Source: Squalus acanthias (lineage: Eukaryota). From it: a DNA stretch of 64,000 nt. The position numbers and the translations under genes are program-made. Numbering within the stretch: position 1 is the first letter of the stretch; each line of letters starts with the position of its first letter. Shown here one piece after another: positions 2,761-64,000 of this stretch. The DNA lies in NCBI GenBank assembly GCA_030390025.1, contig CM059431.1, positions 121,584,001 through 121,648,000 on the forward strand, given 5' to 3'. Below the pieces are notes generated by a model that was not told the origin of the DNA, made no database searches, and saw only the letters and a list, made by a program, of their open reading frames with translations.

Positions 2761-2783
2761 CTTCAAAGAAGTGACTCAACACA

Positions 2784-22026: not shown

Positions 22027-24207
22027 GGCCTACAAATTCGGGGGTTTTGTGTTGGCAGATTAGGCCCGTTATGATGAAAACATGGCCGCCTCACTTCCCC
22101 CTGCTTCCGGTGAGTCCCATGGTGGCCGCCATTTTGGGCAGGTCAGCAACGCTGCCGATGCCCGCGCTCGCTGCAGTTATTTAGATTACGCAGATCATGA
22201 CGTCAGTGAGTGTGCAATGCTCACTTGATGCCCAATTTGCCATTTTCACGTTCGACACTCCACTTACTGGCCTGTAATCATGATCAGCTGACCAAGCGTT
22301 CACTAGCAGGAAGGAGCCTCGAGCAGCACTATTTAAAGGGATCATCATCAACAACTTGCAGCTGATACTGCAACTCCTGCAGCTTTGTAAACTTGTTTGA
22401 AGTTCCTGAGGTAACAGGGAGTGTTGCTGCAAGTGGAGAACACCTTCATTCTCATTTAAAGGCTTCTGCTCACAACACTTGCTCACAGTCATGGACGCTC
22501 TACTTGCAGTCCCCCTTGCTCTTGTATCTTGGGGAGACAGAGTCGAGAAGATGCACACAGAGGGAGGAGGGGCAGGGCCAGGAGGGCTCTCAACAGGAGG
22601 CCTTACCCACCTAGGGTTTTCCGAGAGCACGTCTCTTATCTCCACTTAAGCGAGGAGCAGTGTGTTAGGATGCTCTGCTTCACCAAGGAGGTGGTCACAG
22701 AACTCTGCCACCTCCTGCAACCAGGCCTGCAGCCTCAGACCATGGTGAACACGGCTCCCCCAGTGACCCTCAATTTCTTCACCAGCGGATCCTTCCAGTT
22801 TGCAGCAGGAGACGTAGCTAACATCTCCCAGTTCTCCGTCCATCACTGCATCCGAGAGGTCACGGGGCTCTCTACACCAGTAGAAGGGACTTCATTGTCT
22901 TCTCTCTGAACTGAGAGATGCGGGACAACCGTGCATGTAGCTTTGCCATGATAGTGGGCTTCCCCATGGTGCAGGGTGCCATTGACTGCAACCATGTGGC
23001 TTTGTGGGCGCCGCATATCAATCCTGAGATGTTCCGTAACCGCAAAAGCTACCACTCTCTTAATGTGCAGTTATTGTGCGACCATGCCTAGTGCATCATG
23101 ATGGTCAATGTCCGCTGTCCTGGCAGCAGTCATGATGCTTTAATCCTGCGTCAGTCCAGTGTGCCCGCACTCTTCCAGCCACCACACCAAACCCAAAGGT
23201 GGCTGCTCGGAGACAAGCCCTATCCACCTGTCAGCCTGTCAGCAAGGGCTTCAACTTCTCCCGTTGCCACAGCCTTGGTGACTGCCCCTCCAATGATGTT
23301 GAGCAGGGACTCCTCCAGTTGGCTCAGGGTCTGTACAGCAGTTTGGCCGCCTCCCGTCTGCTGTTGTTCCCGATGGTTGTTAGCCACCTTTGCCTGCAAG
23401 AGAAAGGGAAGTGTATCAGTGAGTGTGGTGCAATGTGTTTGTGTGATGTGCCTGCCATAGTTGAAAAGCTGTCAGTCTGCAAGATGTGTGATGTGGGTGT
23501 CGGTGTTTCAGCAGTGGTAAGGTTGTGAGAGTGATGTGAAGCTATGATTGTGAGGTATCAATGGAGATAGGTAGAGATTGTTAGTAGGTGAGTGATGGGG
23601 ATATGATGCATTGAGCAGTGTGTGAGGCTCGTGGTGCAGATGGTGGGATACAGCATTTGCTGAAGCCTTCACTCAGCTTGACCTGCCGTGTGAGCTCATT
23701 AAACTTCTCCTGGCACTGTATCCATGTCCTTGGCATGGCACTGTTGGCCATGATGTAGGTAGCTATCTCCTGCCAAAGCCTTCTACTGGTAGCTTTTGAT
23801 GGCTTCCCGCCACCCTACGGAACAGGACACCCTGTCTTCTTTCAACTGCCACTACCAAGGCCTCGAGTGCAGCAGCCAAAAACCTTCTTGCTCTCTTGCT
23901 GGATTGTTGTGCCATGGCTTCATTTAGACTGACAATGAGGTGTTGCTGCAACAGACACCTCCCCTTTAAGTAGTGGAGAGAGCCTAGGCCAAACATTACT
24001 GGGCATTAGACTGCGCCCAATATTGGCCCACCTGTTGAGTGCTAAGCCTATCAGTAGCGTGTTTAGCACTGAAATCAGCGCTCCAATCATTATAATGAGC
24101 AGGCAGCATGAATTTTGCATGCTGCCTGGGCTATTCTGAACGGGCGCAGGCAAATAGCGCTAGCCCTTGACACCGCCCATTATTGGGCCTTATCCAATTT
24201 CTAGGCC
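22027..24207. mobile_element. Internally deleted PIF/Harbinger element (transposase + strand ~22490-23225, Myb - strand ~23230-23915)
   Basis: TIR GGCCTACAAATT/AATTTCTAGGCC; RRPYPPRVFREH, GFPMVQGAIDCNHV, PGSSHDALIL, WLLGDKPYP. Confidence 0.85.
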
Positions 24208-25929: not shown

Positions 25930-27400
25930 AAAACAGAAAATGACCTTTCATCAGAACTGGAAAAAGTTAGAGATGTAATGGCCCAGAAATTCGAGTCTCC
26001 GGCTTGCCGCGGGGGTAAGGATCGCACGCGCTCTTACCTACCGCGCCTGCCGTTGTGTTTTGGGCACACAGGAACTTCGGGTCGTTGGCCTCTCCCAACT
26101 GCTGGCGCGCAGTGCTTGCGTGTTCCAGGGGCGCAGTTAGTGCGATGCGACCCCTGGAATCACGTGGGCCATGGAGAGCCAATGGCAGCAGACCATCTTT
26201 CATTCATAGATTTGACAGGAGACCTGTCAAATCTGTGAATTGAAATCGGCCCCAAAAGAACAGCTAAACTTAAAATAAATTTTAAAAAAACATCACATTT
26301 ATAAAATAACTATAGTTAAATAAATTAACCACTTTAAACAAAAATTTAAATTTTTGAAAACATTAAAATACTTTTTAAAAGTGATAAAAATAAACTTACC
26401 TTTCTTAAAGTATCTAAAAAAGATAAACCTGTTGAAAAAATTTTAAAATTATACTTAATTAACCACTTACCTTGTTCAAAAGGGGTCTTACGCCTCCTTT
26501 TTATTAGCGTAGTATCTTCAATACTTACCCTCGCGTAGAAATCTGAAAAAAAATCTAAGTGTGCTGCATGCGCGCAGCCTCTAGCGCGCACGCGGTTCAC
26601 CTAGGAACCGCCCCCTTCACCATACCGAAAGTTTTGGTTTCCCGCGCATGCGCATTGCATGCAGGAAACCGGCACTTCGGGAAGCAATACGGGTGAGTAC
26701 GGATTGTGTACTCACCCGGGAATTGCCGAATTTTTGGGCCAACAGGTTTTAAGCAAGTGCAGAGGCAGGGAAAGGGGGAGGAGAGGAAAGAACGAAAGGG
26801 AAGGTCTGTGATAGGGTGGAAGGCAGGAAAGATTGAATGACAAAAGTGATGATGGTGCAAGGCAAAAGGGGGTGGTAATAGGACAATAAAAGAAACAAAA
26901 GATGGGTCTAGAGGAGCTGAAAATGACAAATGCAGAATCATTACCAGCACCTGCTGCCCGAAAAAATGGGCATGCTGGTTATGATGTCAGTGACAGTCTG
27001 GGAGAAAATGGCTTGATGTTTGGTGGTGTGATCATGGTCCAGGAGGAGGTGTGGAAGAGTTGGTGTTCAGCCTCAGCAAGGTAGAGCTTGGTTCGACGAA
27101 CAACAACAGCATTGTGGTTGGACTTGAGAGAACGGAGTGTTGCAAGTTCATAGGGAGGTAGGTTAGAGTGAGTGAGTGGAGTAGTAAAATTGAGATGGCC
27201 GATGTCACACCAGCAATTCCCAGTGAAAAGATCTAAAGAGTTTAAGAAGCCAGAGGGAGGGGTCCAGGCGAAACGAGAATTCTGAAGATGGGAGAAAGGG
27301 GGGAAGAGTCCTGGCCAAAGAAATGGACGCGGGAGGTGAAGACGATGGGAGAAGAGCTCACTATCGCGTTTGGAGCACAAAATTCATAAAATTACCCCAT
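25930..27400 (-). mobile_element. Deleted Penelope-like element remnant, interrupted by MITE B copy 2
   Basis: WTPPSG..SLDLF...HSNLPPYELATLRSLKSN..AVVV...YLAEAEHQL (ORF 26979-27380). Confidence 0.7.
25980..26740. mobile_element. MITE family B, copy 2
   Basis: TIR GGCCCAGAAATTCG/CGAATTTTTGGGCC, flanks AAT/AAC. Confidence 0.85.
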
Positions 27401-27502
27401 AGTCCCAGTTCTGTAACATCAGCAAACTCTGTGCTGGGAATGGCTGGGAGCAAGCCCCAGCACGCTGAGTTGGCTGCATGTATATCAGTTGATTTATATA
27501 AT

Positions 27503-28180
27503 GGCCCGAAAATTAGACCTAATGCGGGAGAGTACGCATTGTGTACTCTCGCGTATTAGGTCCCGAAGTGCCGGTTTCCTGCATGCACTGCGCATGCGCG
27601 GGAAACCGGCACTTCGGGTATTGCGAAGGGGGCGGTTCCTAAGTGAACCGCGTGCGCGCTACAGCTTTTACACATAAAGAAAGCAGGCGTAAGACCCCCT
27701 TTTAACAAGGTAAGTAGTTAATTAAGTATTATTTAAAAAAAAATTCAACAGGTTTATCTTTTTTAGAGACTTTAAAGAAAGGTAAGTTTATTTTTATAAC
27801 TTTTAAAAAGAATTTAAATTTTTTCAAAAATTTAAATTTTTGTTTAAAGTGGTTAATTAATTTAACTATAGTTATTTTATTAATGTGATGGCTTTTTTTA
27901 AATTTAATTGAGGTTTAGCTGTTCTTTTGGGGGCTTGTTGTATTCATAGTTTTGACAGCACTTCCTGTCAAAACTATGAATGAAAGATGGTGTGCTGCCA
28001 TTGGCTCTAACTGGCCCACGTGATCCCAGAGGTCGCATCGAATTAACTGCGCCTCTGGGACACGCACACACTGCGCGCCGGCACCAGGGAGAGGCCCAAA
28101 ACCATAAAGGTAGGCGCGCAGTGCGATATCGCGGGGGATCCTTACCCCCGCGGCAGCCATCGAACTCCAATTTCTGGGCC
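27503..28180. mobile_element. MITE family B, copy 3 (inverted relative to copy 2)
   Basis: TIR GGCCCGAAAATT/AATTTCTGGGCC, TSD AAT. Confidence 0.85.
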
Positions 28181-28611
28181 AATGAATATTCCCTGCGTAG
28201 GTTTACTTTGTGCCAGCAACTGGTCTAATGGGGCAGGCAGAAAATCTGCCTAGCACAGTGGTGGGCAAAATATGGCCCAGGTGCCGTATCCAGCCTGCCA
28301 GTTCATTCAATTCAGCCTGTTGGAGCTCGAGCTGCATATTTGTCTTGCGAGGGGAGGTCGCTCAGGGTTACTGCGCCTGGGAGTAGTCTACGACCCAGAA
28401 CTGGGGCAATTAATATAAAAGCTGCTGGGACTGCTGCTATATGTCTGATGCAGATCTGCTTCCCGTTTGTGCTCTGGAGCCGGCCTAATGTCTGTCTGTG
28501 GCTCTCTCCCGCTCTGGCTCTGTGAACCACTTTTCTAAAATCCGTCACTCATCGCTGGCTGGTGGGGGCGCTGCTGTGCGTGCGCACTGGACGCTCCTCC
28601 TCCGTCGAGTC

Positions 28612-29302
28612 ATGGCTGCACATCTCGGCGACTCTTAGTTTTGCCGAAGAAAGAGACCGGCGCTGCACCTTTCCTCTCCCGGACCTCATCCCACTTTGAG
28701 CCCTGAACAAACCCCACACTCCGAGCCCTGAACAAACCCCACACTGAGCCCTGAACTCACCCCACACTCCCAGCCCCGAACTCACCCCACACTGAGCCCT
28801 GAACTCACCCCACACTGAGCCCTGAACTCACCCCACACTCTGAGCCCTGAACTCACCCCACACTCCCAGCCCTGAACCCACCCCACACTCCGAGCCCACC
28901 CCACACTCCGAGCCCCGAACTCACCCCACACTACAAGCCCCGAACTCACCCCACACTCCCAGCCCTGAACTCACCCCACACTCCCAGCCCTGAACTCACC
29001 CCACACTCCAAGCCCTGAACTCACCCCACACTCCGAGCCCTGAACTCACCCCACACTCCCAGCCCTGAACTCACCCCACACTCCGAGCCCTGAACTCACC
29101 CCACACTCTCAGCCCTGAACTCACCCCACACTCCCAGCCCTGAACTCACCCCACACTCCGAGCCCTGAGCAAACCCCACCCCGAACCCTGACGAATCTTA
29201 GTTTTACCAAAAAAAGTGTCTTTCCTCTCCTGATACCCAGGCAGGGGAGTTCTCATCGCCGTCTTCGACACGGAAGTGGATCCCGGAGCACAAGGACTCC
29301 AG
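28612..29302 (+). pseudogene. TPP2: Captured TPP2 exon 1 fragment split by a minisatellite
   Basis: ATG 28612; LPKKETGAAPFLSR (28641-28682); [27 protein letters not shown] (29240-29302); vertebrate TPP2 N-terminus as recalled: [39 protein letters not shown]. Confidence 0.88.
28686..29190. repeat. Minisatellite, 25-bp unit CACTCC(C/G)AGCCCTGAACTCACCCCA, about 20 copies
   Basis: Direct tandem periodicity, no unique spacers. Confidence 0.95.
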
Positions 29303-30703
29303 GTAATGCGATTGTAGCTCAGGCCTGGCGAAGCCTCGGGCTCCCATACTCAGCACATTAAAAAGAGAACACCTCTCGCATCGGAGGCACCTCAGACTCG
29401 AGCTACGTAGACTTTCAGTACAACATGTAATCGATCAATTAATCATTTCATTCATTTTAGTAACGGAAGATTTTACTATTTTACACTACATTTTGTGTAT
29501 TTAAGATAGTATCTGACTACTATCTGAATTTCTGTTTACTATTATGCAATGTTTATGTTTATGCGATGTTTCCTCTCATTTTTTTTGTCCCTTTAAATTT
29601 GCTGCGTAGCCGTGCATGCACAGTATCTCTTTCGCAGCAGGAGCTGGTGAGCCGCCTGTGCGGGACCTCGAGATTGGTGGGTGACCGCGCGGCCATGCAT
29701 CTTAGGGGGAACATTTCTGTGCGGGCCTCAATAGTTCACCAAAACTTGTTAAGTTGCTCTCCAGCCCAAGTAATTGCCCACCCTTGGCCTAGCAGCTCAA
29801 ATTTAAAGGGTTGTGGCCACTTAACAATAACTTGCTGCATTATGGGAGAAATACTAGGGCTAAGCTGCACCTGAGTACAAGTTGAGAAGAGTGCTTCTGA
29901 AGTGCGCTCTGCCTGATGGTACCTGAATGTGTCATTGTTTGCTGGTTACCATGGCTCCATTGCTCCCCCAGTCCTTTTGAAGGGACTTGTGCAGGTGAGG
30001 AATGTGGATCACTACTACAAGACTGAGAGGTTGTGGCCGCTGGCTGCAGTGCCTTCTGCTTGATGTCCAAAGTCACCAGTCAGAAGACCTCCTGCCTTGC
30101 CGATACTCCTGATCTATCTAGAAAAAAAGAAATTTAGCTGTTTGAAGGTTGGTGTAGATTGTTGGTAGCCCTTCTCTGATCCTCCAATCTGAGGGCCTGG
30201 ATGTAGCCTCAAAGGCCCAGTTGCAATAGGCCGGCTGGCTTCTGGGTATCCACCAGACAGAAGGCCAGGAAAACGAGGCAGGAAGCATATTGATAACACT
30301 CCACCCCTATTATCATACTATTTGAATGCATCAATTCTTCTCTAGGGGGAAATCCCCAGAAGCATGCAAAGGTACTGGATACCTTGTGGAACAGGTCTCT
30401 GCTCCTGTTGCCTCTTCTTTGAACCTGGGAAGTAAACATATTGAGGGAGCAAGGCAGAAAAGAATCAGTCCCATTGCTTCATATATTGTAAAGTTTCAAA
30501 ATATAATTGAAATATTTGTCAGGCTTTGCCAAGGCTGTTGGGGTTAAGGGAAGGGAGATGTGCCAAGCAAATATGCATTGAAAGGAATTCCAATGTGGGG
30601 AATGCACATTTACAAAATGAATGGTAAATAACTGTCAGTTTACCGGCCTTTCAATATTTTTCTAACCACAGCTCAAAAGGTCATGTGGACTTATGTAAAC
30701 TTT

Positions 30704-33261
30704 GGGCTAGAAAATCATTATAGCCAAGAAATGGGCAGTGTTAGACTAAAAATGGTTAAGTTGCGCGAACCTGAAAAATCATCTAGGCTGCACGCAAAAT
30801 TCGTTCTCACTTCTCATTAAAATGATTGCAGTCATGATTCTCGTCTAAAAAGCCAAGCTAATTGGCGTTACACTGAAAAGATGGAGCAATATCGAGGGCA
30901 GTCTAAACGCAAGTAATGATTGCCATAGGCTTTTTAAACTACTTAAAGGGAAGGCTCATTGATGCTGCAGCACCTCATACTCAGCATTGTTGGGTGTGCA
31001 ACTGCCTCAACAACCATAAGAAAATGGGCAAGGAGAAGTAGCACTTAATTACAAATCCTGATGGCAGATTGTCGCCCCGATAAAACTTTGGAGGCATTGA
31101 TTTTAGCAGTGGAGGGAGACGGGTGATCCTGTATCCGGCAACTGGCAAGAGGTCCTTGACACAAGTCTGCCAGACTATGTGGAGAGAGGTGGCAAACCAC
31201 GTCATGGGCAGCACTATGCTCTCCACGACCCACACCCGGTGCAGGAAGAAGTTTAACGACCTCACACGGGTGGTCAGGGTGAGTGAATGCTTCAACAAAT
31301 GCTACATACCACCATCTGTACCACAAGCTTCACACACTGCTCAATGCACCACACCCCCAGCACTCACCCACCAACAATCTCTACCTAGCACCCACATCTC
31401 ACACCTTGCATGCAATGACAGCTATTCAACTATGGCAGGCACAAGGGTCATTTGTTATTAGAATTCATGTGATATGTGTGATATGTTTATAGATAAAATT
31501 ATTAATTGTGTTTAGAATATTTTGTGGTCTCTCTCATTTCACCTTTGCGCTCAGGAGGACACTGTGATATGCTATGAGACAGTGATTGTATGATGGGGAT
31601 CTGGTGTGCTACGAGGATCTGGGGTTTCATTCATGCGATTGGAGTCTGATGAGCCGGTCATGGACAACCCATCTGGAAGGCCAATTGTTTTGCTGTCTCC
31701 GCCCTCCCTGTCCTCCTCATCCTCCTTTGTCTTGTCATCCTCCTAAAGTGGTCCCACAATCCCTGCTGGCAAGGGCGGTGCCCTCATGATGGCCAAGTTG
31801 TGGAGCATGCAGCAGACCACCATGAAATGGGACACCCGCTCAGCCGAGTACTGGAGGGCTCCTCCTGAGCGGTCAAGGCAGTGGAACTCTTTCTTCAGTA
31901 GGCCGATGGTCTGCTCGATGATGTTCCTGGTGGCAGTATGGCTCTCATTATATGAGTGCTGGGCACGAGTGTTGGGGTTGCGGAGGGGAGTCATGAGCCA
32001 GGTGAAGAGTGGATAGCCCTTTATCTCCGAGCAGCCACCCACGAGCTTGACGTGGTGATGGGAAGAGTGCTGGCAGACCGATCTGGCGCAGGATGAAGGC
32101 ATTGTGGCTGCTTCCAGGATAGCGGGCATTGATACTAAGGATTCGCTGTGTGTGGTTGTACACCAACTGCACATTAAGTTACAGAAGATCTCAGGATTGT
32201 TATGCACTGCCCGCAAAGCCATGTGGGTGCAGACGATGGCGTCCTGCACCATGGGAAAGCCCGCTATCCTGGCAAAGTCGGCACACTTGTCTTGCTTCTC
32301 TCTGGTGATTGGGAAGCCAACGTAGTCCCTTCTCCTGCTGTAGAGAGCCTCAGTGACCTCCCGGATGCAGCAATGGACGGCGAACTGTGAGATGTTAGAT
32401 ATGTTTCCTGCTGCAGACTGGAAGGATCTGCTGGTGAAGAAGTTGAGGGCCACGGTGACCATGCCTGCCACTGGGAGAGCTGTGGTCGTCCTGGTCTGAG
32501 GCTGGAGGTCTGGTTGTAGGAGGTGGCAGAGTTCTGTGACCACCTCCTTCATGAAGCGGAGCCTTCTAATACACTGCTCCTCATTTAATCGAAGGCAGGA
32601 GAAGTGATGTCGAAAGACCCTAGGAGGGTAAGGCCTCCTGGTGAGAGCCCTGATGGCCCTCCTCCTCCCTCTGCGCACATGTTCCTGTCTTTCTCGCTGC
32701 CTCCGCTCCCTCTGCCGTAGATCCTGGAGGGTGAGGTCCACTGCCAGTATAGCCCGCAAGAGTTTTAGCAAGTGTTGTAGGTTGGAGCTTTTCAGAAATA
32801 ATTATGGAGTTTTGTACTTGCCACAACACTCCCTGATACCAAAGAACCTTGAAATGACTAAAGTAAACTCTTGCAGTAGCAGGAATTAGAACACAGCCAC
32901 TCAAACTTCACAAACCTGTCAGATGCGAGTGATTGGTGAGGATCCCTTTAAATCGCATTGCTGGAGCCGGCTTCATGCTGCTGCCGCCACCTCAACCTGT
33001 CGTTGTTTTCTCCAGCCGGTAAGTTCATTGACTGTAATGAAGGTGGGAGATTGGGCATCAAGTCAGCGTTGCACACTCACTGATGTCATGATCTCCATGA
33101 TGGCGAGGTCCCTGATGATCCAGTTCAGCGGCAGCGCTACCGGCAAGACCGATATGGCGTGCAGTGCTGGAATCAGCATCAGGTGTCGTTTAAGCTCTCA
33201 ACGGTGTTTTACCGCCCTCTCGTGGCACTAACGTGTGGTGCAAACCGCACACATTTCCGCC
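30704..33261. mobile_element. PIF/Harbinger element remnant (Myb + strand ~31020-31440; transposase - strand)
   Basis: MWREVANHV...TRCRKKFNDLTRVVR|GTGAGT; ends approximate. Confidence 0.8.
31743..32771 (-). pseudogene. Harbinger DDE transposase (HARBI1-like), frameshifted
   Basis: RRPYPPRVFRHH, GFPMVQDAIVCTH, YPGSSHNAFIL, WLLGDKGYPL, YNESHTATRNIIEQTIGLLK..F.CL, CCMLHNLA. Confidence 0.9.
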
Positions 33262-42950: not shown

Positions 42951-44854
42951 AAAAACCCATAATGCTAGATCTCTGCTCTTTTATCACATGATGCATATTT
43001 TCTGGGGGTAGAAGGTGGGGGAGCTCCCAACTGAATACTATTGTTATGAAACAGAAGTGACTTTTGTATGCCCTCTGCAAAATTTTCTAGAGATCATGCA
43101 TCGCGTCCATTAATGACGGTTGCAAATCTAGGGTTAGTAGGTTTTAATTATTCAGTAAGAAAATTTATTTAGCAGCTAAAAGGCACAATGTTTCTTCAGT
43201 TCTTCTGTTTTCTTTCTGCTGGCACGTCATTTTTTATGAGTCTTTGGGGCCCATCTTTAACTTTCACCCGAGCCCGGCACAAAGTCCGAAGCTGGCGCGA
43301 AAGGCTCAAGCCATTTTTGGTTCAGGCCTCATATCATTATCATTGATGAGCGGTTGGCGCTCGTTTGGCCGCTCAACACCTGGCACAAAGGTGCACACCC
43401 ACCCCCGTGTACCTGAAAATTGCAAATGGGTTCCTACAACTGGTGTAGGAGCCTGATTTCCATCATTAAGCAGTCTCCTGTCAGAAACAGGTGGGCACGC
43501 AATCGCTCATTTACAGACCTGCCTGAAAATTACATCAGGCAGATCTTGGCTGCCAATTGGGCAACCGGCAACTTTCAACTGTCGGCCGTCTGTTTTTCAA
43601 GCAAGAAATGGACGGCCAGCACTTGAAAATCGCCTCCTTTGTGTCAATTGATGGAAAAGAAATTGTCCCCAGCACCTTTATTGGCACTAATGCATTTACC
43701 AATCAGAATTTCCTACCTGTGTTCGGAAGAATTGGAAGACCAACGGAGGGATGCCAGGCAGGACATGCTACACAAGAACTATTTTGCGCTCATGCACCCA
43801 CTGATAGCCACATGTGCTGGAAGAGGTGACCAGAGGGCGCTTTGGCAGTTAGTGTATGCTGAGGCTCCGATTCTAAAAGAAAGTAGGGACAGCATGCCCG
43901 GTGATTCTGTGATTCCAAGTGGGAAGTGATGCTTGCAAGGGGCACAACTCGGGAAATTGCAAGTGTGCAGCCTCGATTTTTCATCCATTCATTTTAATCT
44001 TCTGAGAATTGCTCCCCGTGACTTGATCTTTTCCACCGGAGTGTGGAATCACCCCTGCCGTGCCTTTGACGAACTGAAGGAAACAAATTTTCATCACCCC
44101 ATCAAAAGGCAATGCATGAGTATCAAAGCAAAGTTGATCTGTTAATATACAATTGTTATTTTTGTGCTGTTTTTTTACCATTCTAATTTTGGGGATATAA
44201 ATCAATTTTCTTTACCAAGCAAAGTAATTTTTGTCATTTTTCTAATTAGTTAAGGTTGTTCCTTTTCCTTACAAAATTTCAGTGAATATGAAATTTGACA
44301 ATGTATTCGTATAGAGTCTGCATCTTCTATCTAATTAATTAGGAAATTTGCATTGGTGCCGTGAATATGTTGATCATTAAAGTGATTAATTATATTAATA
44401 TCGAATCTAATTTGCATGTTAATTGCCTTCTTATTCATTTTAAAGTCAAAATACATGACACGGGAAGCAATTTGGTCTTGTTACAGATTCAAACAAATTG
44501 GTAACAATCTTTGAAATGGTTTCTTTTCACTGGCAGTTTTTAAAAGCAAGACTTTAGATCTGAAAAATTCTGATATATCAAAAAACAGTGAATGAAATGA
44601 CTGCTAGGCAACATTAATAATTAAATAAACATTGAACAGGCTTTGATGATATTTTGAAAGAAAACAGTCAGTATTCCAAATATATGTGAGCCATTAACTC
44701 TCCAAGCTAAAATGTTAAATGATTGAATTTGTTTGCAGCAGTGGAACACTTCTCCCATACTAGGGAGCAGTAATCATCTCACATCTAATATTACCTCATT
44801 GACATGTCCAGTGGTAGCTACAATAGGTTGCCACTATTCAAGTATACCATAAAG

Positions 44855-46289
44855 CAGTGGTGGGCAAAATACAGCCTGGGGGCCGTATCCGGCCCGCCAA
44901 TTCATTCTATCCAACCCGCTGGATGGGCCAGAAATAGAACGCGAGCTGGAGCTCGAGCTGCACTTTAGTCTGAGTTGAGTCATGGCTGCTCATCTCGATT
45001 ACTCTTTTACCGAAGAAAGTGATCGGTGCTGCGTCTTTCCTCTCCCGGTACCTAGAGTATGGCGGCAGGGGAGTTCTCATCACTGTCTTCGACACGGGAG
45101 TGGATCCAGGAGCACAAGGGCTCCAGGTAATGCGATTGTAGCTCAGGCCTTGCGAAGCCTCAGGCTCTCGTACTCAGCACACTGAAAAGAGTCGGCGGCC
45201 CCGCAGACTCGAGCCACTCTGCCAAACAGCCACATAGACTTTCAGTACAACATATAACCGAAAGATCAATCATTTATTCATTTAGTAACGGAAGATTTTA
45301 CTATTTTATACTACATTTTGTGTATTTAAGATAGTAACTGACTAATATCTGAATTTATATTTATAATTATTGGGAGGGTAGAAGTGGGAGTGATGATTAA
45401 AGCTATGAGTTGGCTTGTTTCAAATTTACCAATTTAACACTTAGCTCTCACCAATGATGTTAGTGGGGTTATTAATTTTTGCACAATTATACACTCGTTT
45501 TAATATTATCCCACTTAATTAGCATAGTGGAGGTATAACTAAATGGACCCGGGTATATTGGATATTACATTCACTGTTTTTAATTTAAGCCCTTTTTTCC
45601 CATACCATGAACAATTCAAGCTTATTGTCATGACTGGAAGAGGGATGTAGAGATTTATGTCGTTGGTCAGGCCCAGTAATAAATAGCACTCGGGGAAGAA
45701 ATGCGTATTATCATGGTGCATTGCTTGTGGCCATTCTCAAGTGAAAGTCGGTGAACTATAGGTGGCTTGGCTTTTCTCAGGAGTGATCGAACCTTGACAA
45801 TGAACAAGCCAATTTGATGGCTGATCTGGGTCGCAATTTGTGGTATAAATCCTGTTCTGAGCCACCTAATTGTTTCTTAGCGAGGTATCAAAGGCATCAA
45901 AGTAGCACTTTCATGTGCAATTTTTAAAAGGTTGTATAAATGATTTTATCCTTGATTGTGCATTATACTATGTTCATAATTCCCATCGGAAGCAAAATCG
46001 ATCACTCATTTTCCACTACAAGAATTAATTTAGACCATTTGGAATAAACAGACCGAGAACCTTTCAATGTGATTCGTAAATCTGTATCATGTCCGTTAGC
46101 ATGTTAATTAATAAGTGTTGTTATTTTTATTAAATGTGGAAACAAAATGAAGGGTTCTTTATACAATAAATGCCGTAACAAGTTTTAGTGATAGCTGTTG
46201 TTCACACAATTCATTTTATGTGTGCGGCCCTCAACAGCTCACCAAAACTTGTTCAGTGGCCCTCCAGCCCAAATAATTGCCCATCCCTG
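44855..46289 (+). mobile_element. Non-autonomous hAT element B carrying TPP2 exon 1
   Basis: TIR CAGTGGTGGGCAA/TTGCCCATCCCTG, perfect 8-bp TSD CCATAAAG; shares ends and cargo with 28256-29786. Confidence 0.9.
44982..45126 (+). pseudogene. TPP2: Captured TPP2 exon 1 (ATG out of frame after a small deletion)
   Basis: 45004-45126 translates [41 protein letters not shown] followed by GTAATG donor. Confidence 0.9.
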
Positions 46290-47197
46290 CCATAAAGCAA
46301 ATTAAAACCGCAGCAGTTATAGAGAAAAACTAAGAATCCTGTATATCTGGTAATACAAACCAGGCCAATTAGCATCTCAAAGACAATGACAGGTTAACAT
46401 TTTGAGTCGGACCCTGCATCAGGATTACACAGGTGACAATATTGAAAATGTCAAAATACTGAGATTATTTTTTGTGATTTTCATAAGCAAACAATTTATG
46501 CATTTGGGTGAGTTGTATGTTTGCTATTATGGTCTTATTTTAAAGAAGGTTACACCATTAGTTAAAATAGCAAAGCGATGCATGTCACATGAACATATTA
46601 AGTGCTCATTCTCCATTATTACCGGCACTAACTTCCAGCCTAATATTTCAATAAAATGGGGCAATACTCAAAGGAAACCATTAGAGGCAGCACTGTCCCT
46701 GACCAAAGTGGATCCAGAGGGATAGGATGGTGCATTTTTGGTTATTTTAAGTAAATTTTATTAAAAAGAACAAAAGTTTAATTACTTACTTGATGTTCAT
46801 TGACCATAAATATGTGGAGACATTAGGACCAATTTTGTTGGCTCCCCATTGCCCTGCTGTTGTGCAGGTGTGCTGCACCTGTCCAGACTCAGGAATGACA
46901 AATGTACTGACCTGGGCCATTAACATGGGCACCCCAGCACACACTTTCCCCTTGGCTGGGCCTTGCACTGAAGGGCAGAAGAGGAGAGGCCTGCAGCTGT
47001 GCTTCTGGTCACTGGCTTTAGGGCTTTCTGGCTACTTCTGAAGAGCAGCCACCAGTAAACCTTGAAGACATAAGATAATCGGTAACAACTTACCTTGGCC
47101 TTTTCATTTCTCTTTGGGCTGTTCTTGGGACCCTTTCGGATCCTCTGATCCATGGACGTTCTGGCACTAGCTCTAATGCCTAGAATCTTCAAGTGTC

Positions 47198-48859
47198 TGT
47201 AAAGTTTCGCAATTATCGCGATTCAAAATAACACAAGAGAAGCAGATTCGTTTGATCAGTTTTATTAAACGAAATGCTGTCCTGATAATAAAGGACACAG
47301 AAGCCTGTAAAATGGCCACCGTGCATCGTGGCAGAAGCTTCCAGAAACACAGTGGGCAGACAAAATGGCGTCGAATATACATTTAGTATAAGATTGGATC
47401 ATACTCGGTAAACACTAATAAAGACAGGACGCAACCCGTTTGCATTTGGAACAATAGCAAAGATATAAGTGCTGGAATCGTTTTCCTATGCACAGTAAGG
47501 ATCATTGAACTGGGCAATCGAAGGCCCATCCAGACACATCAATACACAAATACCCCCCCCCCCCCCCCGGCTCTACAATGAGAGAGACATTGACGGGTGA
47601 TTAAGCAAGTATTCGGGGGCCCCCAAAACCAGTCAGGGAGATGATTCATACACATCCTGGCTGGGTCAACAATGGGGAAACATTAACGGATAGATGGCCA
47701 GTTTCAGGTGCTACCGAAACCCGTTAAAGAAGATAATCGCCCCATGCTGGGAGTATTGAGAGCCAATATTACACAAAGGACAAACATTAAGATTTGAGCG
47801 GGAGATAAGCGGACACATCACTATAACTATAGAGAACAAATGTCCATCGGTCTCTTGACTCTTATGCTCTTATCTCTGCTGACTCTTGACTCGGGCTGAA
47901 CTCTTATCCCTATCCTCTGGTAACGCTCTGCTGGACGGGCAACCTTCTGTGTTTTCTCTCTGGACTTTGTGGACTCTTGACTCTTAGCCGTACTGGTCGG
48001 TTATTCGAGTGTTGGGTGGAGCTCAATCGGTACGAGCCGCCCCGACAAGGGCAGGTAACAGGGTACACCATCCCAAGCGTCGGTAAACGGTGTCTGGACC
48101 CGGAGGCCGAAGGAGAAGAAGACGAGAAGAAAATCCACGTGCCGCCACGGTCAGTAAACCCCGACCGCGCCGAAAATATAAATACAGGACTTTTCTTTGA
48201 GTTCTACCAACTACAACCTGTGTTGAGCACAGGAAGACTCTTCTTTGAACTGTGTCTGAGGTCCGTTGGGTTCTTCATGACAACAGGGAGTCTGGCCTGC
48301 TTTTCGCAGCAGCGAAAGTAAACAAGTGGGGTACAGAGACCCTTCCAAACACGTGACAGTCAGGCGCTGCAGCGAAACGAGCTGAGCTGCCTCACTTTAA
48401 AAATCTCCGAAGTAACACGAGTGGTGAGCATGTTTTCCGATCCTACAAATCTAGACGTAGTGTAGGTATTATTAAGGGAGGGTGTTTTAATAAGGTTAAG
48501 ATATAATGTGTTCCCCTTTCTACAATGTGCCGTGTGTTCTCCATTTCCACAGACCAAGCTTTATGAATGTATGTATACTTGTACTATCGTTGATTTGCGC
48601 CTATGACATGTATTTCATGATTTTAGACGCATGCAATAAAGATTTCCATTTCGTACTATTCAACCGGGTCTATTTGAGTTTTTCTCTGCATTACTGCTCA
48701 CTGCACCTAAGTCCAGTGTTAGAACCGTAAGGGCGAGTGGGTCGAACCACTCACAGGTGCTTATTGCAATAAGGCTGGCCGGAGACCAGAGCAAGCAATA
48801 GTATTAGGCAACGAAGGCCTAACCTCGCACAAGCACCGTCTGAGACACGCCCCCTTACA
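47198..48859 (+). repeat. 5' LTR (~1.66 kb)
   Basis: TGTAAAG...CCTTACA, AATAAA at 48635, PBS directly after; 3' ~500 bp match 63513-64000 in reverse complement. 5' boundary inferred from the TG end only. Confidence 0.8.
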
Positions 48860-48882: not shown

Positions 48883-48936
48883 ATTGGCAGCAGGAGAGTA
48901 ATGTTTTAGACCCTAATTTTGAATAGGCGAAATGTG

Positions 48937-50664
48937 ATGGATGAGAGGGTAGCCGACTATGTGTTTGGGAAGGTTAACTTAACCAAAAAGTGGATAAGTG
49001 ACCTACTGATGGATAAGCGTCTGCTAGACGCCGCCATCAAGTGGACAGGTAGTAAAGATCATAAGAAGTCGGTAGAGAAAGCGGTCTGGCTGATGTGCTA
49101 CAAGAAGCAAGTCCAACTTTCGGACCAGGTCATTGCAGCACAGGCAGCTCAGATCAGGGAATTGGAAACTGAGATGGAGGAAAAGGTTACGGGAGGACAG
49201 AGACTCATTGCATCATTGAATGCGTTACATCAGGAACGCCAAATAGTAGCTAACCACCACGAGGCTAAGATTGATTACCTAGAATGTCAGGTCACGGAAG
49301 CAAAATTAAACGAGGGTAGGATTAGAGAACGGTGTGTCTGCCTAGCTAACCAGATAAAAGCCCAGGAAGAAAGCTTGAAGGGAGTTAGGGCGGCATACAA
49401 GATGGCCCTCGAGGATAGGCATGAGGGAGCCGACCACAGTGTTTGCCAGAGGGAGATAGAGAACCTAAGGGAGTCCCTGAGTAAGGCAAACGGCTTGGTG
49501 TGTCTCATCAGCCCGTCAGCGAGCCAGCCACAGGTGGGTAGGGAATTCCCAAAATCCCTACCGGAAAAGGCAGAAGAGGTATCTGCCACTGCGCCCTCCG
49601 CGCCACCCAGCTATACGGCAACCTGGGTAAGGGAGGAAGTGGTGGAAATAGAGAAGAAGGTTCCCGAGGTAGGACAATCCCCGGAGGTAGTGTCGAGACC
49701 GAGACCGATGTGTCCGCTCCGAGGTCACAAGAGAGGCCCGAATGCGGACAATGGGGAAGACGGGGATATCCTGAGCCAACTTGTATTGCCCCACAGCTCA
49801 CACCAGCTGAGAGCAATGATTAGCCATGTACGGAAGCTGTCCGAGTCAGTTGACCCTTCCGTACATTTTAGAGAAGTAGAACAGACCGCAGCGATTAATG
49901 GCTGCGACGACGAGGAAAAGACCAAAATGTTGCTGTTCTCTTTAGATAGCTCGATCCTTCAGTGTCTCTCCGACGAGAGCAAGAAGGGAAATAAAACCTA
50001 TGGGGAGTTACGGGACGAGGTCCTAGAAGTGTTAGGGGCGGATGACGAAGGTCCGTTCTTCAGATTGAGTCAGACCGTACAGATGGAGGGAGAACCCCCG
50101 AAGGTTTTCGCCGACAGACTGTGGCCAGTATACCAGCGTAGCTGCCCAGGTGCGCCAGCGCGCACCTATCTGGGCGGCGCCGGGAAAGCTCATTGGCTCA
50201 GGTGCATGGTAGCCAACAGCTTGCCAGCCGTCAGGGAGCAGGCCAGTGCGTGGTTTGATCCCACTAACCCCGCCACAATGGAGGAGTCTGTCCTAAATCG
50301 ACTCACCATAGGGTATCGGAACACTAGGAGCATGGGAGCGCGTCCCCTTAAGGGAAAGGTGCATGAGGCAAAGCCCGCAGCTCCGGCTCAGAAAGAGTGG
50401 CATCAGGAGGGAAATCGCGCCCCACAAACCAGTGGTGTTTGTTACGGGTGCGGGAAGACAGGTCACTGGCGTAAAAACTGCAGGAATCCCTGGAAGGACT
50501 CCAGGGACAAAGCTCCCGCAGTCCGAACCCAAGCGCCTGTCTCCGAGAAAGGAGCTGGTGTGCCTATCTATCCCGATGCGATAGAATCAATGTTAGGAGC
50601 CATGCGGTCTCTCATGACCTCACACGGGGAGGTAGCAACAGCCCCATACAACCCAGACTTCTGA
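48937..50664 (+). CDS. gag: Gag polyprotein, open (first ATG 48937)
   Basis: N-terminal coiled coil, PSAPPSY late motifs (49594-49614), capsid-like Q.EGEPPKVFADRL, CYGCGKTGHWRKNC knuckle (50440-50481). Confidence 0.9.
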   Translation: MDERVADYVFGKVNLTKKWISDLLMDKRLLDAAIKWTGSKDHKKSVEKAVWLMCYKKQVQLSDQVIAAQAAQIRELETEMEEKVTGGQRLIASLNALHQERQIVANHHEAKIDYLECQVTEAKLNEGRIRERCVCLANQIKAQEESLKGVRAAYKMALEDRHEGADHSVCQREIENLRESLSKANGLVCLISPSASQPQVGREFPKSLPEKAEEVSATAPSAPPSYTATWVREEVVEIEKKVPEVGQSPEVVSRPRPMCPLRGHKRGPNADNGEDGDILSQLVLPHSSHQLRAMISHVRKLSESVDPSVHFREVEQTAAINGCDDEEKTKMLLFSLDSSILQCLSDESKKGNKTYGELRDEVLEVLGADDEGPFFRLSQTVQMEGEPPKVFADRLWPVYQRSCPGAPARTYLGGAGKAHWLRCMVANSLPAVREQASAWFDPTNPATMEESVLNRLTIGYRNTRSMGARPLKGKVHEAKPAAPAQKEWHQEGNRAPQTSGVCYGCGKTGHWRKNCRNPWKDSRDKAPAVRTQAPVSEKGAGVPIYPDAIESMLGAMRSLMTSHGEVATAPYNPDF

Positions 50665-51453
50665 CTGGAACCGGTGCAGCCTGCCTACCTGTGTCCCTTT
50701 GAAAGACACGCACAGGAGGGGGCCTCCTGTAAGGAGGCCAGGTTAAAAGAGCAGGCCTTGCGGGAGGAGAACGCCCGCTTAATGGGGAAAGTAGATGGGC
50801 TAGAAGGGCAGCTTAGAGACATAAAGGCAGCCTACAGGGTAGCCAGGAGCCGGGAGTATGAGGATTTAAACCATGGGCCCTGTGAGGAAAGGATAAAAGG
50901 TCTGACCCAAGCCCTATCCAAAGCCAGAGGGATGGTTTGCTCAACAACCCCGGCGGAATTCACCACCCCGCAGTTGCAAGCCATGGTAGCAGAGTTGCCC
51001 AAACTAAAACAGAATAGAAATCTGCAGCCTCCAGCAGGCGAGATTACACAGAATGCACAAACAGGGGCGGTGGCCTGTCATAGGGGAGGGGCCAAACCTG
51101 CGAGTGGGGACTCTCAGCCCCGGGTAGAACCGCAGGGCACACAGGCCGGTAAAGCAGCCTGTGTGAGGGGAGAAGACATTTTGGAAAAGTGTAGGATCTT
51201 TTCTTGGTCTTGGGATTCAGATGAGGAAGAGCTCGGAGAGCTCGACCAAGTTAGTGACCCGGTCGGAGAGGTGGTGGGGTCGGAGGACGGAGGTTTCGCC
51301 CCCGACCCAAGCATAGGGGAGATAGGGATTGCAAGTGGAGTTCCACTTACTGGGGAAACAAGTAGGGTGGAGTCGAAACCGCAGATCCCGAGCCCAGGGG
51401 GGCGGAGCCAGGGGAGACAGAGCCGGCGGCTGTGGTGGGACCACAGGCCGTGA
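50665..51453 (+). CDS. ORF2, in frame with gag after one TGA; contains a diverged second Gag coiled-coil segment
   Basis: Same frame as gag; 50734-50940 aligns ungapped to gag 49297-49503 (25/69 aa identical by hand). Confidence 0.7.
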   Translation: MEPVQPAYLCPFERHAQEGASCKEARLKEQALREENARLMGKVDGLEGQLRDIKAAYRVARSREYEDLNHGPCEERIKGLTQALSKARGMVCSTTPAEFTTPQLQAMVAELPKLKQNRNLQPPAGEITQNAQTGAVACHRGGAKPASGDSQPRVEPQGTQAGKAACVRGEDILEKCRIFSWSWDSDEEELGELDQVSDPVGEVVGSEDGGFAPDPSIGEIGIASGVPLTGETSRVESKPQIPSPGGRSQGRQSRRLWWDHRP

Positions 51454-51973
51454 CGGTGGAAGTCTCGGTTCCCTGTCCGTTGGTCCTGGAAATCTTGCCC
51501 AAGGTAGCCCTCCGTAGGTCAAGTCGGACACCCCAGCCCAGGAAGTTGTGGCCAAATCCCTCGTACACCCCCAGGCGTAAGTTCAAGGCAGCCCAGGGAG
51601 ATCCCAGTCCCAGCACAGCGTCGACAGGCTGCGGCAGATCAAAGGAAGGGGTCAGTTCCCCCCCGCCACTGGGAAAAGCTCGTGGCAGCCTTCGCAGACT
51701 TTAGGTAGGCCGCCCTGGGAACGGGCGGCGCTGTACAGTTAAGTTTAGGATAAGTTTAAGTTTATAGTTTTTTTAAGTTTGGTAAGATTGTAGTTTAATT
51801 TTTAAGTAACTGGTAAAATGATGGGAGTTAGTGATAGGAATAGTTAAAGTCTATCCAGCATACATGTCTTTTTACGTGAGACGAGGTCAAGGGACCCGCT
51901 CACCCTTCACAAAGGCCAGAGACTCTTGGGAGGCTGGCTACATCATTTTATCTGATCACAGGAACCAGGAAAG

Positions 51974-53814
51974 ATGGAAAGGATTCTGATAGTGCTCGCA
52001 ACGATCGGATATGGATTGGCCTATCGGGGCCTCACCAAGGATGTCGTTGTGTTTGGTTGCTCTGGGGACACGGCCCCCATCGCGACGGATGGGACCGGGT
52101 AGCGAGAGGCTGAGGAAACCGTCACTTATTTCCACAAGGGAAGGTGGCCGGGATGGCTGGGAACGAATTTGACGGAATACTCCAGCGCATCCGGATTTGC
52201 CTACAAAGAGACTTCTTCACTGTATCCCAGGGTGAGGATCATTGCACCCAGAATCAGCGTCACCGTCGGCAAAAGGATTTGTTTGACATGCAATGGGAAG
52301 GTCCCATTGAGCCGATGGTGGTGGTTACGGAAGTTAAGCAAGACTATGAGAAATTCCTCGGTCGAGTGGGAGCGATTGGGTAACAATACCCATCGGACAA
52401 TTACGGGGACTAATGGACAATTGAAAGTCTGTTGGGACAAATGGTGGGAACCGAATGAGGGAATATATGTGTGTATGTGGGATCAAAGTACGTTTGCCCC
52501 AAGGGTATATCCATATTTTTCCTACGACAGTGGCAGGATGACGGGAAAGGGATGAGGTGGGATCTCAGCACCAGGGGGTGTGGAGCTCCATTCTCTCCGA
52601 TCCCAGTAAACGCCACTGAACTCATCACGCACCCACACAAGTCTCCGCCCACGATTCCGGTGGCTTTGGCTCAGGAGGAAGGGTGCCCTAAAACCACTAA
52701 GGGGCCCGGGAATGGTCTGGTACTGGTGCCAACAGATCAGATACTATATCAAGGGGTACATTACGCGGTGGCCTCGGTGATTTTAAATCTCTCCGAGGTG
52801 CATTTACCAGAGTGGTGCCCCAAAGAAACGGAAAAATTGTACCAGGTCCTGTTAACAAACATGTTCAGGCAATTTTATGAGTTTGATTTTGCAGAGGTTG
52901 ACAAAACAAGCTTATACACCACACCACACGAAGTTTTGGGTCAGGTGGGGAGACAAAGAAGGGGTGTTGTGAACGATGTGTTCACTGCTTTTAATACGGG
53001 AACATCTGTGGTCAACGCTCTAGACAATGTGGAGCTGCAGACCCAGATCAACGGTTTAAAAACACAGTTAAAAAGCATCCTCAGAAACGAGAACAAGGTA
53101 GTAGGGTCTGATTTACATGAGGACCAGGCCATAACACTACACTTAAAAGAGATTATAGCAGAGCTGGAGAAGCATGCGAGAACGGTAAATGCCCTGATCA
53201 GGGAAGATCGGAACGCATCCGATCAAGCTGCGCAGAACGAGGTGTGCGTACTATACGGGGTGTGGTTACTGGGCGAGGGCCGCAGTAATTTGAAGGATTT
53301 AAAACAAGGTTTGGTCCCGTCCTGGATAAGTAACAAACACCTGCAGGCGCTCCACCCTTTTCAGAACGCATTAAGCCCGTGCCAGCTCAGGCTAGCCTCA
53401 GAGGCATACCCAGTCCCCGTGGACTGCGGACGGTCAAATCATACTATCATGGGGATAGTAGTACGGATGTCGGTGTTGGGCGACACAGCAAAGCCCGCCC
53501 CGGTGTACCGGGTGGAGAACATTGGTGTCATTCAGGGGGGAGCCCACATTCGCTACGCAGCGGTCCCACCTTACGTCATCCGCTGGGAGCAAACGATGAC
53601 AGGTACCGACCTTTCGGGTTGTCGTGGCTGGGGAGCACACATCATCCTGTGTCCCCAGCTCTTGAATGCCTTTTTAACACCACAATGCGGGTTCAGAACG
53701 GCTGGCGCGAAGCCCATGAATTGCACCATGGAAGCAATGACACAAGATCATATGCCCCCACAGGTGGCATACATAGGGGGTGGAACGTATTGCATTACCA
53801 CTGCAGCGCATTAA
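51974..53814 (+). pseudogene. env: Envelope glycoprotein: signal peptide, Ig-like domain, class I F-like fusion protein; TAG at 52100, frameshift ~52500-52550, C-terminus truncated
   Basis: MERILIVLATIGYGLA; VTVGKRICLTC..WWW..GQLKV..NEGIYVC; furin RQRR (52951-52962) + GVVNDVFTAFNTGTSVVNAL + heptad; Cys-rich region; no TM anchor. Confidence 0.85.
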
Positions 53815-54846
53815 TACCATGCCCTTATGCTCATCTATTGTCATAACAGAATCTGTTGTTAGCCAGCCCACCCCTTTCTTTACCGCTTTTTATAAATTCT
53901 TTGCTATTACGTTTATACAAGCTACAGGATTTATTTTTACACTCCTTCTTTTCCCTCTTTATTTTCCTGGTTTCCACGAATAGACATTAGAAAATGGGAC
54001 ACATGCTCTATTTGAATACTAAAGTCAAATTATTTGAAATTTTAACCTGCAATGAAATTAAAATTCATTCAAATTTGCTTGGAGAATTTTACTTATTTGG
54101 ATGACTTACTGGAATCCCTGATTCATCTTATTCAAGCTAAAAGTACAATTAAACAGAAATGAGTTAAAACAGCCAAATTGGAGGCATCTTGCTCAAAGTT
54201 TTGGAAACAAAATGCCAGCAAGAAGCAAATGTAAGATCTGCAGTGAAAATCTCCCGAGTCAAAATTAGAGTTTTGTGATGCATACAAATATGAAAGAAAG
54301 CGAAAAGAAGTGAAATACCCATGTTTGACCAAGTGGTTTACTTTCCAATAAGCCGGTGGATAGTCACAGTGTGAAATCAGGCAGGAGGTGGGTTAGGAGA
54401 TTCAGATTGGCATATTCTAGAGTTGGGTAGGGGTCGGGTTAGCAGAGGGTGCAGGACACCTAGGTGTGTTCACATACACAAATCTTTGAAGGTGCCAGGA
54501 CAAGTTGATAAGGCTGTTAAAAAAGCATACGGGATATACTTGGCTTTATAAATGATGGCAGCAGTGCCATTTTGGAGCTCACACTCCAGCCCATGCCCTC
54601 TCTTAACCTCACACAGCTGAACACGCGTTAAGCAGTATGAAGGACCCCCACCAGTGCTATTTAAAGGGATCAACAACTACTTACAAGTTAGATGCTGGTT
54701 GATTTCTTCTGGCTGTTGTTATGATTCTACAAGTGTTTGGTGCTTTCCATAGTTCTTTCAAGTTGCTGAAGTCGACAGGGAGTGGCAGGCGCTGAAGGAC
54801 TTTTTCCTGACTTCAAGGCATCTGCACGAATTAGTTTCTCCCAGAC

Positions 54847-55860
54847 ATGGGTGCACTAGTTGGCATTCCCCTTGGAATACAGCATGACTGGGAGAATGAG
54901 CAGAGGCTGCACAGAGCAGGACAAGCTACTAGAAGAGGGAGGAGGGGGAGATGGGTTCTCAGCTGGAGGCTATATCCATCCAGGGTGTCCAGGGAGCAAT
55001 TCTCCTACCTGAACCTCAGCGAGGAACAATGTGTGAGATGTCTGAGCTTCAATAAGGACCTCCTCACTGTAATCTGTCACCTGCTGCAGCCACAACTGCA
55101 ACCTCAATGGAGGGCAAGGACCTCATTGCCAGTGGCTGTGAAGGTGACCATGGCGATCAACTTTTATGCGTCTGAATCCTTCCAGGTGGGAGCTGGAGAT
55201 ATTTTCAACATCTCGCAGTTTCCCGTCCACTGTTGCATAAGGGTGGTCATTGAGGCTCTCTATTCAAAGAGAACTGACTACATTTCATTCTCTCTGGTAG
55301 AGACCAGCAGGTGGAGTGAGCATACAGGTTCACTAGGATTGCAGGCTTCCCCATGGTGCAGGGTGCCATTGACTGCACGCACATTGCTTTGCGAGCGCCG
55401 CATGTCAACTCTGCCATACACCGGAACCGAAAGGGATTGCACTCTCTCAACGTCCAGCTGGTGTGCGACCAGAGGTAGCGAATCATGCATGTCAATACCC
55501 GGTATCCTGGCAGCAGTCACAACGCCTTCATTCTGCAGCTGTCCGCTGAGTCTTCTGCATTTGAGCCACCATGGCAAACCAAAGGGTGGCTACTGGGCGA
55601 CATGGCTCCTGACTCTGGTGAAGAACCCACACACACGTGAACAGCATGCATACAATGAAAGTCATGCTGCCACATGAAATGTGATAGAGTAGACCATAGG
55701 CATGCTGAAACGATGATTCTGCTGCCTGGACTACTCTGGAGGAGCCCAGAAGTACTCGGCAGAGCAGGTGTCAAGATTCGTCGTGGTCCACCGCACAACC
55801 TCGCCATTATAAGGCAGCAGTCCTTGCCACCAGCTATACAACGAGCAGCTGAGGAGCAGG
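54847..55860 (+). pseudogene. Harbinger transposase (HARBI1-like), disrupted
   Basis: YPSRVSREQFSYLNLSEEQC, GFPMVQGAIDCTH, YPGSSHNAFIL, YNESHAAT. Confidence 0.9.
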
Positions 55861-63512: not shown

Positions 63513-64000
63513 TGTAAGGGTCACGGACTGGTGCGAGGTGAGGCTTTCGTTGCCTATACTATTGCTTGCTCTGGTCTCCGGCCAGACTTTTGCAATAAAC
63601 ACCTGTGAGTGGTTCGACCCACGCGCCCTTACGGTTCTGACACCTGGACTTAGATGCAAGGAGCAGTAATGCAGAGAAAAGACTCAAATAGACCTGGTTG
63701 AATAGCACAAAATGAATGTCTTTATTGCATGGCGTCTAAAATCATGAAATACATGTCATAGGCGCAGATCAAAGAGTGTACCTGTATACACACGTTCATA
63801 AAACTTAGTCTATGGGAATGGGGAACACACGACACATCGTAAAAGGGGGAACACATTATACCTTAACCTTATAAACCACCCTCCCTTAATATACCTAAAC
63901 TACGTCTGGATTTGTAGGATCGGGAAACATGCTCACCACTCGGCTCACTTCGGAAATTTAAAATGAGGCTCTCGGCTCGTTTCGCTGCAGCGCCTGACTG
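63513..64000 (-). repeat. LTR of the same family as 47198-48859, inverted, runs off window
   Basis: Reverse complement matches ~48357-48859 and ends CCCTTACA at 63513. Confidence 0.9.

Follow-up and report, generated by a model that had tools for sequence, protein, structure and literature searches.

Pack-TIRs, which hold host sequence between the ends of a TIR transposon, have been surveyed broadly in animals by Tan et al. 2021, whose main text counts 370 of them, including 208 hATs and four multicopy cases with few copies each, so that multicopy Pack-TIRs are rare in animals by that survey (PMC8277862). The same text describes Pack-hAT-N8_XT of Xenopus tropicalis, with three copies that contain a piece of the CAPSL 5′ UTR, puts the multicopy share of rice Pack-MULEs at about one third, and presents gap-filling and fork-stalling/template-switch models of capture (PMC8277862). 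In bats, HelibatN3 is described in the text of PMC4224331 as holding the promoter, 5′ UTR, exon 1 and part of intron 1 of NUBPL in about a thousand copies. The TSD consensus of the Buster group is given as nnnTAnnn in the text of PMC3517528.

Here we describe a family with TPP2 cargo from two copies, elements A and B, in a 64,000-nucleotide stretch of shark DNA (the window). TPP2 exon 1, which is host non-TE sequence, lies between the ends of one element, and the family is a Pack-TIR by the tested features, a known kind that is unusual here in copy number and host lineage. It resembles Pack-hAT-N8_XT, as published, in the host 5′ fragment within an apparent non-autonomous hAT, the distinct TSDs and the transposition after capture; unlike that three-copy element, it occurs in a shark and, by its depth signal, would comprise hundreds of older copies that fall into subfamilies. 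Like the bat Helitrons, it has a high copy number in a vertebrate and a cargo that covers the 5′ part of a housekeeping gene up to and including the first donor, but these are described as rolling-circle elements without a TSD, whereas the TPP2 family is of the cut-and-paste TIR kind with an 8-bp TSD. The 8-bp TSD with a central TA and the short, imperfect inverted ends starting with CAG are as described for Buster non-autonomous hATs, from which A and B differ in carrying a host exon and a probable intron. Plant Pack-MULEs also amplify gene fragments within a TIR transposon, but in the cited description they belong to another superfamily and kingdom and have many cargo genes, against the one cargo gene shown here.

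The copies look far more numerous (apparently hundreds) than those of published animal cut-and-paste gene captures. In that case, a cut-and-paste element could multiply host exons in a vertebrate genome on the scale of the bat Helitrons. The pipeline of Tan et al. takes a unique BLAT top match with at least 90% identity and a length ratio of 80-120%; as described, these filters select for recent captures whose source is unique and would tend to miss such a family (PMC8277862). The words "shark" and "TPP2" occur 0 times in the main text of that paper, whose supplementary tables could list a chondrichthyan case. Our literature searches returned no paper on a TPP2-carrying hAT family, for which a name may exist in repeat libraries.

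From its ends and TSD, element B is classed as a non-autonomous hAT of the Buster type. The hAT label of both A and B rests on these features because no transposase was found, and there was no Pfam match inside B. The ends of A and B also resemble what we take to be Charlie-type end motifs. B is closed by two perfect copies of CCATAAAG, and an exact 8-mer at a fixed place has a chance of about 1.5e-5 with equal base frequencies. Its inverted ends differ at two of 13 positions, and their length falls inside the hAT short-TIR range of 5-27 bp. A scan of the window with the 13-mer end is weak by itself (seven matches with up to two mismatches, compared with 3.06 expected); TSD-closed elements were opened by just the two exact matches in the scan. 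In both A and B, the TA at TSD positions 4-5 fits the nnnTAnnn preference. The positions of all features are given in Table 1.

Table 1. Elements A and B and their parts, numbered from the first letter of the window.
Feature	Position	Strand	Remarks
Element B	44855-46289	+	Classed as non-autonomous hAT; 13-nt inverted ends, perfect TA-centred 8-bp TSD
Left TSD of B, CCATAAAG	44847-44854	+	8 bp, TA at positions 4-5
Left end of B	44855-44981	+	13-nt TIR (44855-44867), then subterminal sequence; 81% likeness to A over the first 69 bp
Captured TPP2 exon-1 coding remnant of B	44982-45126	+	ATG at 44982; 17-nt frameshifting loss before 45004
Frameshifted 67-codon ORF of B	44982-45185	+	From captured ATG through donor; no credible homologue
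GT donor at conserved exon-1 boundary and ~240 bp common to A	45127-45370	+	Read as start of TPP2 intron 1
AT-rich segment without counterpart in A	45371-46220	+	36% GC; co-amplified in family
Right end of B	46221-46289	+	TIR 46277-46289; 87% like last 69 bp of A
Right TSD of B, CCATAAAG	46290-46297	+	
Element A	28256-29786	+	Ends same as B; TSD GCCTAGCA (28248-28255, 29787-29794)
GC-rich segment of A upstream of ATG	28345-28611	+	57% GC, CpG o/e 0.69; missing in B
TPP2 exon of A, ATG at 28612		+	13-nt loss at deletion site of B; split by 25-bp minisatellite (28698-29191); short internal duplication
Alternative 3′ segment of A	29564-29716	.	Ends complementary at 10/15 positions; probably a small TIR element, nested

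The insertion and its relatives were followed in Logan contigs aligned on 44405-46804 at 80% likeness, using four of the 18 listed runs: X2 and X5 (two samples of organism A), X6 (organism B) and X16 (presumed RNA), with the shares of organisms C-E excluded. The left junction of B is bridged by a contig of X2. At the right junction, contigs of X2 and X6 both end at 46261, 29 nt inside the element, slightly short of the 31 nt that the bridging rule asks for, which suggests that the insertion is common to organism B as well. The flank in organism B differs from that of element B at 18 of 546 letters. Within the window, 1 kb on each side of element B is unique. To its right, at 46325-46644, some bins have 4-12 times the depth of the unique flank, indicating short low-copy repeats there.

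The stop-free TPP2-like frame of B comprises 41 codons (45004-45126) and is followed by a GT at 45127. It matches Drosophila TPP2 (3LXU) with an E value of 2e-9, the query being shifted by one codon. A search of a protein collection gave 17 matches, 14 of which are full-length TPP2s, with sharks and rays ranking first. Compared with 13 chondrichthyan TPP2s, six to eight of the 41 residues differ in B (35/41 are as in shark TPP2), whereas the chondrichthyan proteins show at most four differences among themselves over the same region. The frame ends in AQGLQ, the chondrichthyan form; the bony vertebrates compared end in PGMQ. Because the exon of B has chondrichthyan-type residues, the donor was the host lineage's own TPP2. 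The captured fragment includes a DTG motif, which presumably holds the catalytic aspartate of TPP2. The residue before this motif is F in both A and B and L in all 13 chondrichthyan sequences. At 45020, where B departs from TPP2, 52 contigs have the TPP2-like letter.

Counted from the ATG, the first L of the frame is preceded by 39 nt (13 codons) in shark TPP2, by 22 nt in B and by 26 nt in A. The losses of 17 nt and 13 nt, respectively, are at the same site behind the ATG, and both shift the frame. A contig (record 11) crosses the deletion site of B with 0 gaps, so that the 17-nt loss is present in another copy. The sequence-only reading had missed this loss, and also that some 260 bp located before the ATG in A have no counterpart in B. 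The contiguous frame is no sign of coding use, because it is severed from its ATG, and no TPP2 peptide is possible. The 67-aa product of the frameshifted ORF had one match among 1.84 billion representatives, a tandem-repeat protein, which we judged to be due to chance. Over 36 codons, A and B differ by six synonymous and six non-synonymous changes (pN/pS 0.37, P 0.08, not significant); some excess of synonymous changes may be due to CpG decay. No further TPP2 exon was seen in the window among the matches listed. Neither element has the features of a functional TPP2 paralogue, as the ATG is out of frame in both and no other exon stands in the window. In X6, one contig (record 27) exceeds the length of B by 17 letters over 44978-45275 and has a depth of 6.3 (single-copy); judged from its length and depth, it may be the undeleted source exon.

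Genomic read-through proteins of many animals agree up to the Q at the end of the exon and part after the next V. Because they diverge past this point, the GT corresponds to the conserved exon-1 donor. A ray-like read-through (P0001) continues for 67 residues past the donor, and its frameshift-tolerant alignment scored 36 with B and 49 with A, against maxima of 32 and 41 in 40 shuffles. In an unanchored nucleotide-profile test, the score of B (19.2) was not significant against a shuffle maximum of 20.8 and a window-tile maximum of 23.2, and that of A (21.2) exceeded its shuffle maximum of 19.5 yet stayed below the tile maximum of 23.2. In an anchored test, done after the unanchored one, P0001 compared with the 200 nt past the donor beat 200 of 200 local shuffles in both A and B. 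It also scored above the 36 other read-throughs of the 37 compared. These comparisons lend moderate support to the reading of the ~240 bp as the start of TPP2 intron 1. The retained donor GT, the missing exon 2 and the anchored intron likeness point to capture at the DNA level and not to a retrocopy.

Element A has a different composition between the same ends. The last 50 nt of its GC-rich upstream segment resemble the ray-like TPP2 5′ region (linked tblastn match, E 4.6e-4); in a local nucleotide-profile test, the upstream piece of A was not significant (upstream of B, 22.3 vs 15.6). The minisatellite inside its TPP2 exon has 20.4 copies of the unit, and beyond it the exon start is repeated in decayed form. 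Around the alternative 3′ segment of A, a TSD was looked for and none was seen. The right end of this segment stands before 46220 in 37, 27, 44 and 4 contigs; it probably is a nested small TIR element that marks a large subfamily. An unclassified non-coding repeat with internal palindromes occurs in at least three copies in the window (27502-28181, 25979-26742 and 14388-15153), one of them just left of A.

When B was compared with the window by blastn, every match lay in A. Four pieces were matched, namely the two 69-bp termini (left 81%, right 87%), the exon start (81%) and 45033-45370, which aligns to 29218-29545 of A (82.6%). Between the 2-kb flanks of the two elements, blastn gave no match at E 0.01. 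Because the two elements have different perfect TSDs and unlike flanks, they are separate insertions of one family. Several claims of the sequence-only reading are borne out by these data, namely the different TSDs, the 41-codon TPP2-like frame that ends at a GT, the ~240 bp common to A downstream of it, the ~850 bp absent from A, and transposition after capture, as seen in the TSDs and flanks. Its description of B as an independent element is accurate for the insertion; the capture itself appears to be common to A and B, which share the deletion site, the change of L to F before DTG and the intron start. Contigs that mix features also exist, record 11 combining the B-type deletion with another 5′ context. 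The best reading is that A and B derive from one cargo-bearing ancestor and were shortened in different ways.

The contigs extend this picture to a large family. In total, 1913 (X2), 1206 (X5) and 1927 (X6) contigs were aligned, most of them less than 95% alike. The unique flank bins have a depth of 8-16. Relative to the flank, the depth of the exon bins is 299-350x, 303-358x and 148-206x, and the median depth of the extra segment is 195x, 187x and 69x in X2, X5 and X6, respectively, both being summed depths and not copy numbers. The right-end bin reaches about 850-1030x the flank, well above the exon, and its counts may take in relatives without cargo. Among the rows listed, at least 24 and at least 36 contigs leave into unrelated flanks before 44855, and 26-53 contigs per listed row enter unrelated long flanks behind 46289/46290. 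The contig flanks agree at just 0.41-0.49, with a TCTAGA-like consensus that accords with the nnnTAnnn preference of the Buster type. Among the pieces listed, diverged copies span the junctions of left end and exon, the donor, intron and extra segment, and extra segment and right end (records 10, 12, 13, 20 and 23). Many diverged copies with unrelated flanks are thus present in organism A and organism B, and we estimate that the family would number in the hundreds. It is multicopy by its distinct TSDs in both window copies (2/2) and the unrelated flanks in many contigs. An abundant family had been proposed from the window letters, together with the alternative that only two copies exist through segmental duplication; the contigs and the unlike flanks agree with the proposal and contradict its alternative.

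The AT-rich segment of B (45370-46220) has just two chance matches of 18-24 nt to the rest of the window. None of its six frames matched Pfam. A single PDB match at E 0.11 across the six frames (none below E 0.1) and an Rfam match to mir-210 alone (23.6 bits against a gathering threshold of 50) were dismissed. Contig joints include variants that skip 861 bp (45364-46226, with A-like breakpoints) or 599 bp. In X16, a contig runs from the left end directly to about 45720, with TPP2 absent between them. X6 and X16 each also have a contig that matches B as far as 45387 and from there departs into other sequence, which is identical in the two. Such contigs fit a little better with an element interior that hosts the TPP2 piece, or with a second capture, than with plain further intron.

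If the family gathers host fragments serially, as the modular cargo of the sequence-only reading implied, the segment would be a second captured locus. It is missing from A, the contigs of X6 and X16 leave B at 45387 alike, which would be expected of the source intron if this point were the limit of the TPP2 capture, and the left end reaches ~45720 free of TPP2 in X16. However, the same contigs fit the segment as the element's own interior. There was no match in Pfam, in PDB below E 0.1 or near the gathering threshold in Rfam, nor a further TPP2 exon, and the differing piece of A resembles a nested TIR element rather than host DNA. Serial gathering is a doubtful reading, and a modular second cargo would be no more than a candidate identity for a segment that has no protein or RNA-family match and is amplified with the family. 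As for the segment itself, an element body is quite possible, if somewhat short of an even chance; more TPP2 intron seems rather unlikely, and so does a second locus.

We consider it highly probable that the family arose by one DNA-level capture in a non-autonomous hAT, after which the exon was soon inactivated and the element was mobilised in trans, with deletions and nested insertions coming later. A single capture, a copy number in the hundreds, the order of the deletions and the capture mechanism are what we infer. A non-autonomous hAT of the Buster/Charlie type would have captured the 5′ end of host TPP2 once, as DNA, taking up the 5′ region, exon 1, the donor and the start of intron 1, probably via template switching in repair or replication, as judged from Pack-TIR models. 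An early deletion behind the ATG would have inactivated the exon, and a related transposase would have moved the loaded element in trans to many TA-centred sites. Internal deletions and nested insertions would then have split the family into subfamilies: B would have lost the TPP2 upstream part but kept its long 3′ interior, and in A, which would have retained the upstream part, a small TIR element would occupy the place of the interior. The cargo would be a neutral passenger, unable to encode TPP2. Against this explanation stand, among others, the unequal deletions of A and B (13 and 17 nt), the lack of significance for B in the unanchored intron test, the right-end counts that may take in cargo-free relatives, and the A/B pN/pS of 0.37, which is below neutral, though not significantly.

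The unequal deletion lengths would also be expected if the same hAT family had captured TPP2 exon 1 several times independently, and A and B do differ at both junctions and are merely 81-87% alike. The common deletion site, the common non-TPP2 F before DTG, the identical 5′ and 3′ ends of the shared sequence and the mixed-feature contigs (record 11) make this very unlikely. A and B lie 15 kb apart on one strand, as copies made by segmental duplication of one locus might, but the different perfect TSDs and the 2-kb flanks without a match contradict such an origin; a chance likeness to TPP2 in an ordinary hAT is opposed by the E value of 2e-9, the 35/41 identity and the donor at the conserved boundary. 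Either of these would be hardly credible. Use of the cargo is a different question: an A-type promoter/5′ UTR with the donor might start chimeric transcripts, or small RNAs derived from the repeats might act on TPP2. The donor GT is retained in A and B, the upstream piece of A is rich in GC and CpG, the pN/pS is below 1 (not significant), and the extra segment has two kinds of common motif, an acceptor-like site (45771-45780) and AATAAA (45678, 46043 and 46165). Nevertheless, both elements have the frameshift behind the ATG, B has no upstream piece, and six replacements in 41 codons exceed the at most four among chondrichthyan TPP2s. One listed contig of X16, in which cover is no gauge of expression, crosses the donor unspliced, and no joint at the donor was seen among the rows listed. 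The data show no sign of function, and we regard use of the cargo as improbable.

A wider proposal, to which we give only limited credence, is that Pack elements abound in sharks much as they do in rice, which would make sharks a hot spot among animals. A module of TPP2 promoter, first exon and donor, with a second captured piece, would have been moved by this hAT family to hundreds of loci before the two species split, some copies would start or trap spliced transcripts, and multicopy cut-and-paste capture would be common in chondrichthyans instead of a 1% rarity. The family, with its apparent hundreds of copies, is large enough to date the capture, to order the deletions and to test gap-filling against template switching followed by transposition. 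Its TPP2 copies will disturb TPP2 annotation and read mapping in these sharks.

Short TPP2-like models of Mustelus asterias were considered as copies of the family and rejected, because exon 1 in these models lacks the deletion and keeps the frame, and because several carry accession numbers adjacent to TPP2, on a contig of equal length. In these models (P0002, P0007, P0018-P0022), an intact in-frame TPP2 exon 1 is spliced to a novel exon. Some of the short genes adjoin TPP2 by numbering and some are on small scaffolds, and they probably stem from a separate event in which the 5′ end of TPP2 was duplicated locally.

The window consists almost entirely of repeats. Long open frames of 584 aa and 451 aa lie within 48910-53814, and 48357-48833 recurs inverted at 63528-64000; we take the frames to be gag-like (584 aa, with a CCHC knuckle) and envelope-like (451 aa) parts of an LTR retroelement. 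Related decayed frames at 31743-32801, 22192-23227 and 54835-55833 presumably derive from PIF/Harbinger transposases, which they resemble. The segments 1086-1745, 2258-4319 and 16396-17844 have what appears to us as likeness to a GIY-YIG endonuclease, a Ty3-like pol and a CR1-like reverse transcriptase, respectively.
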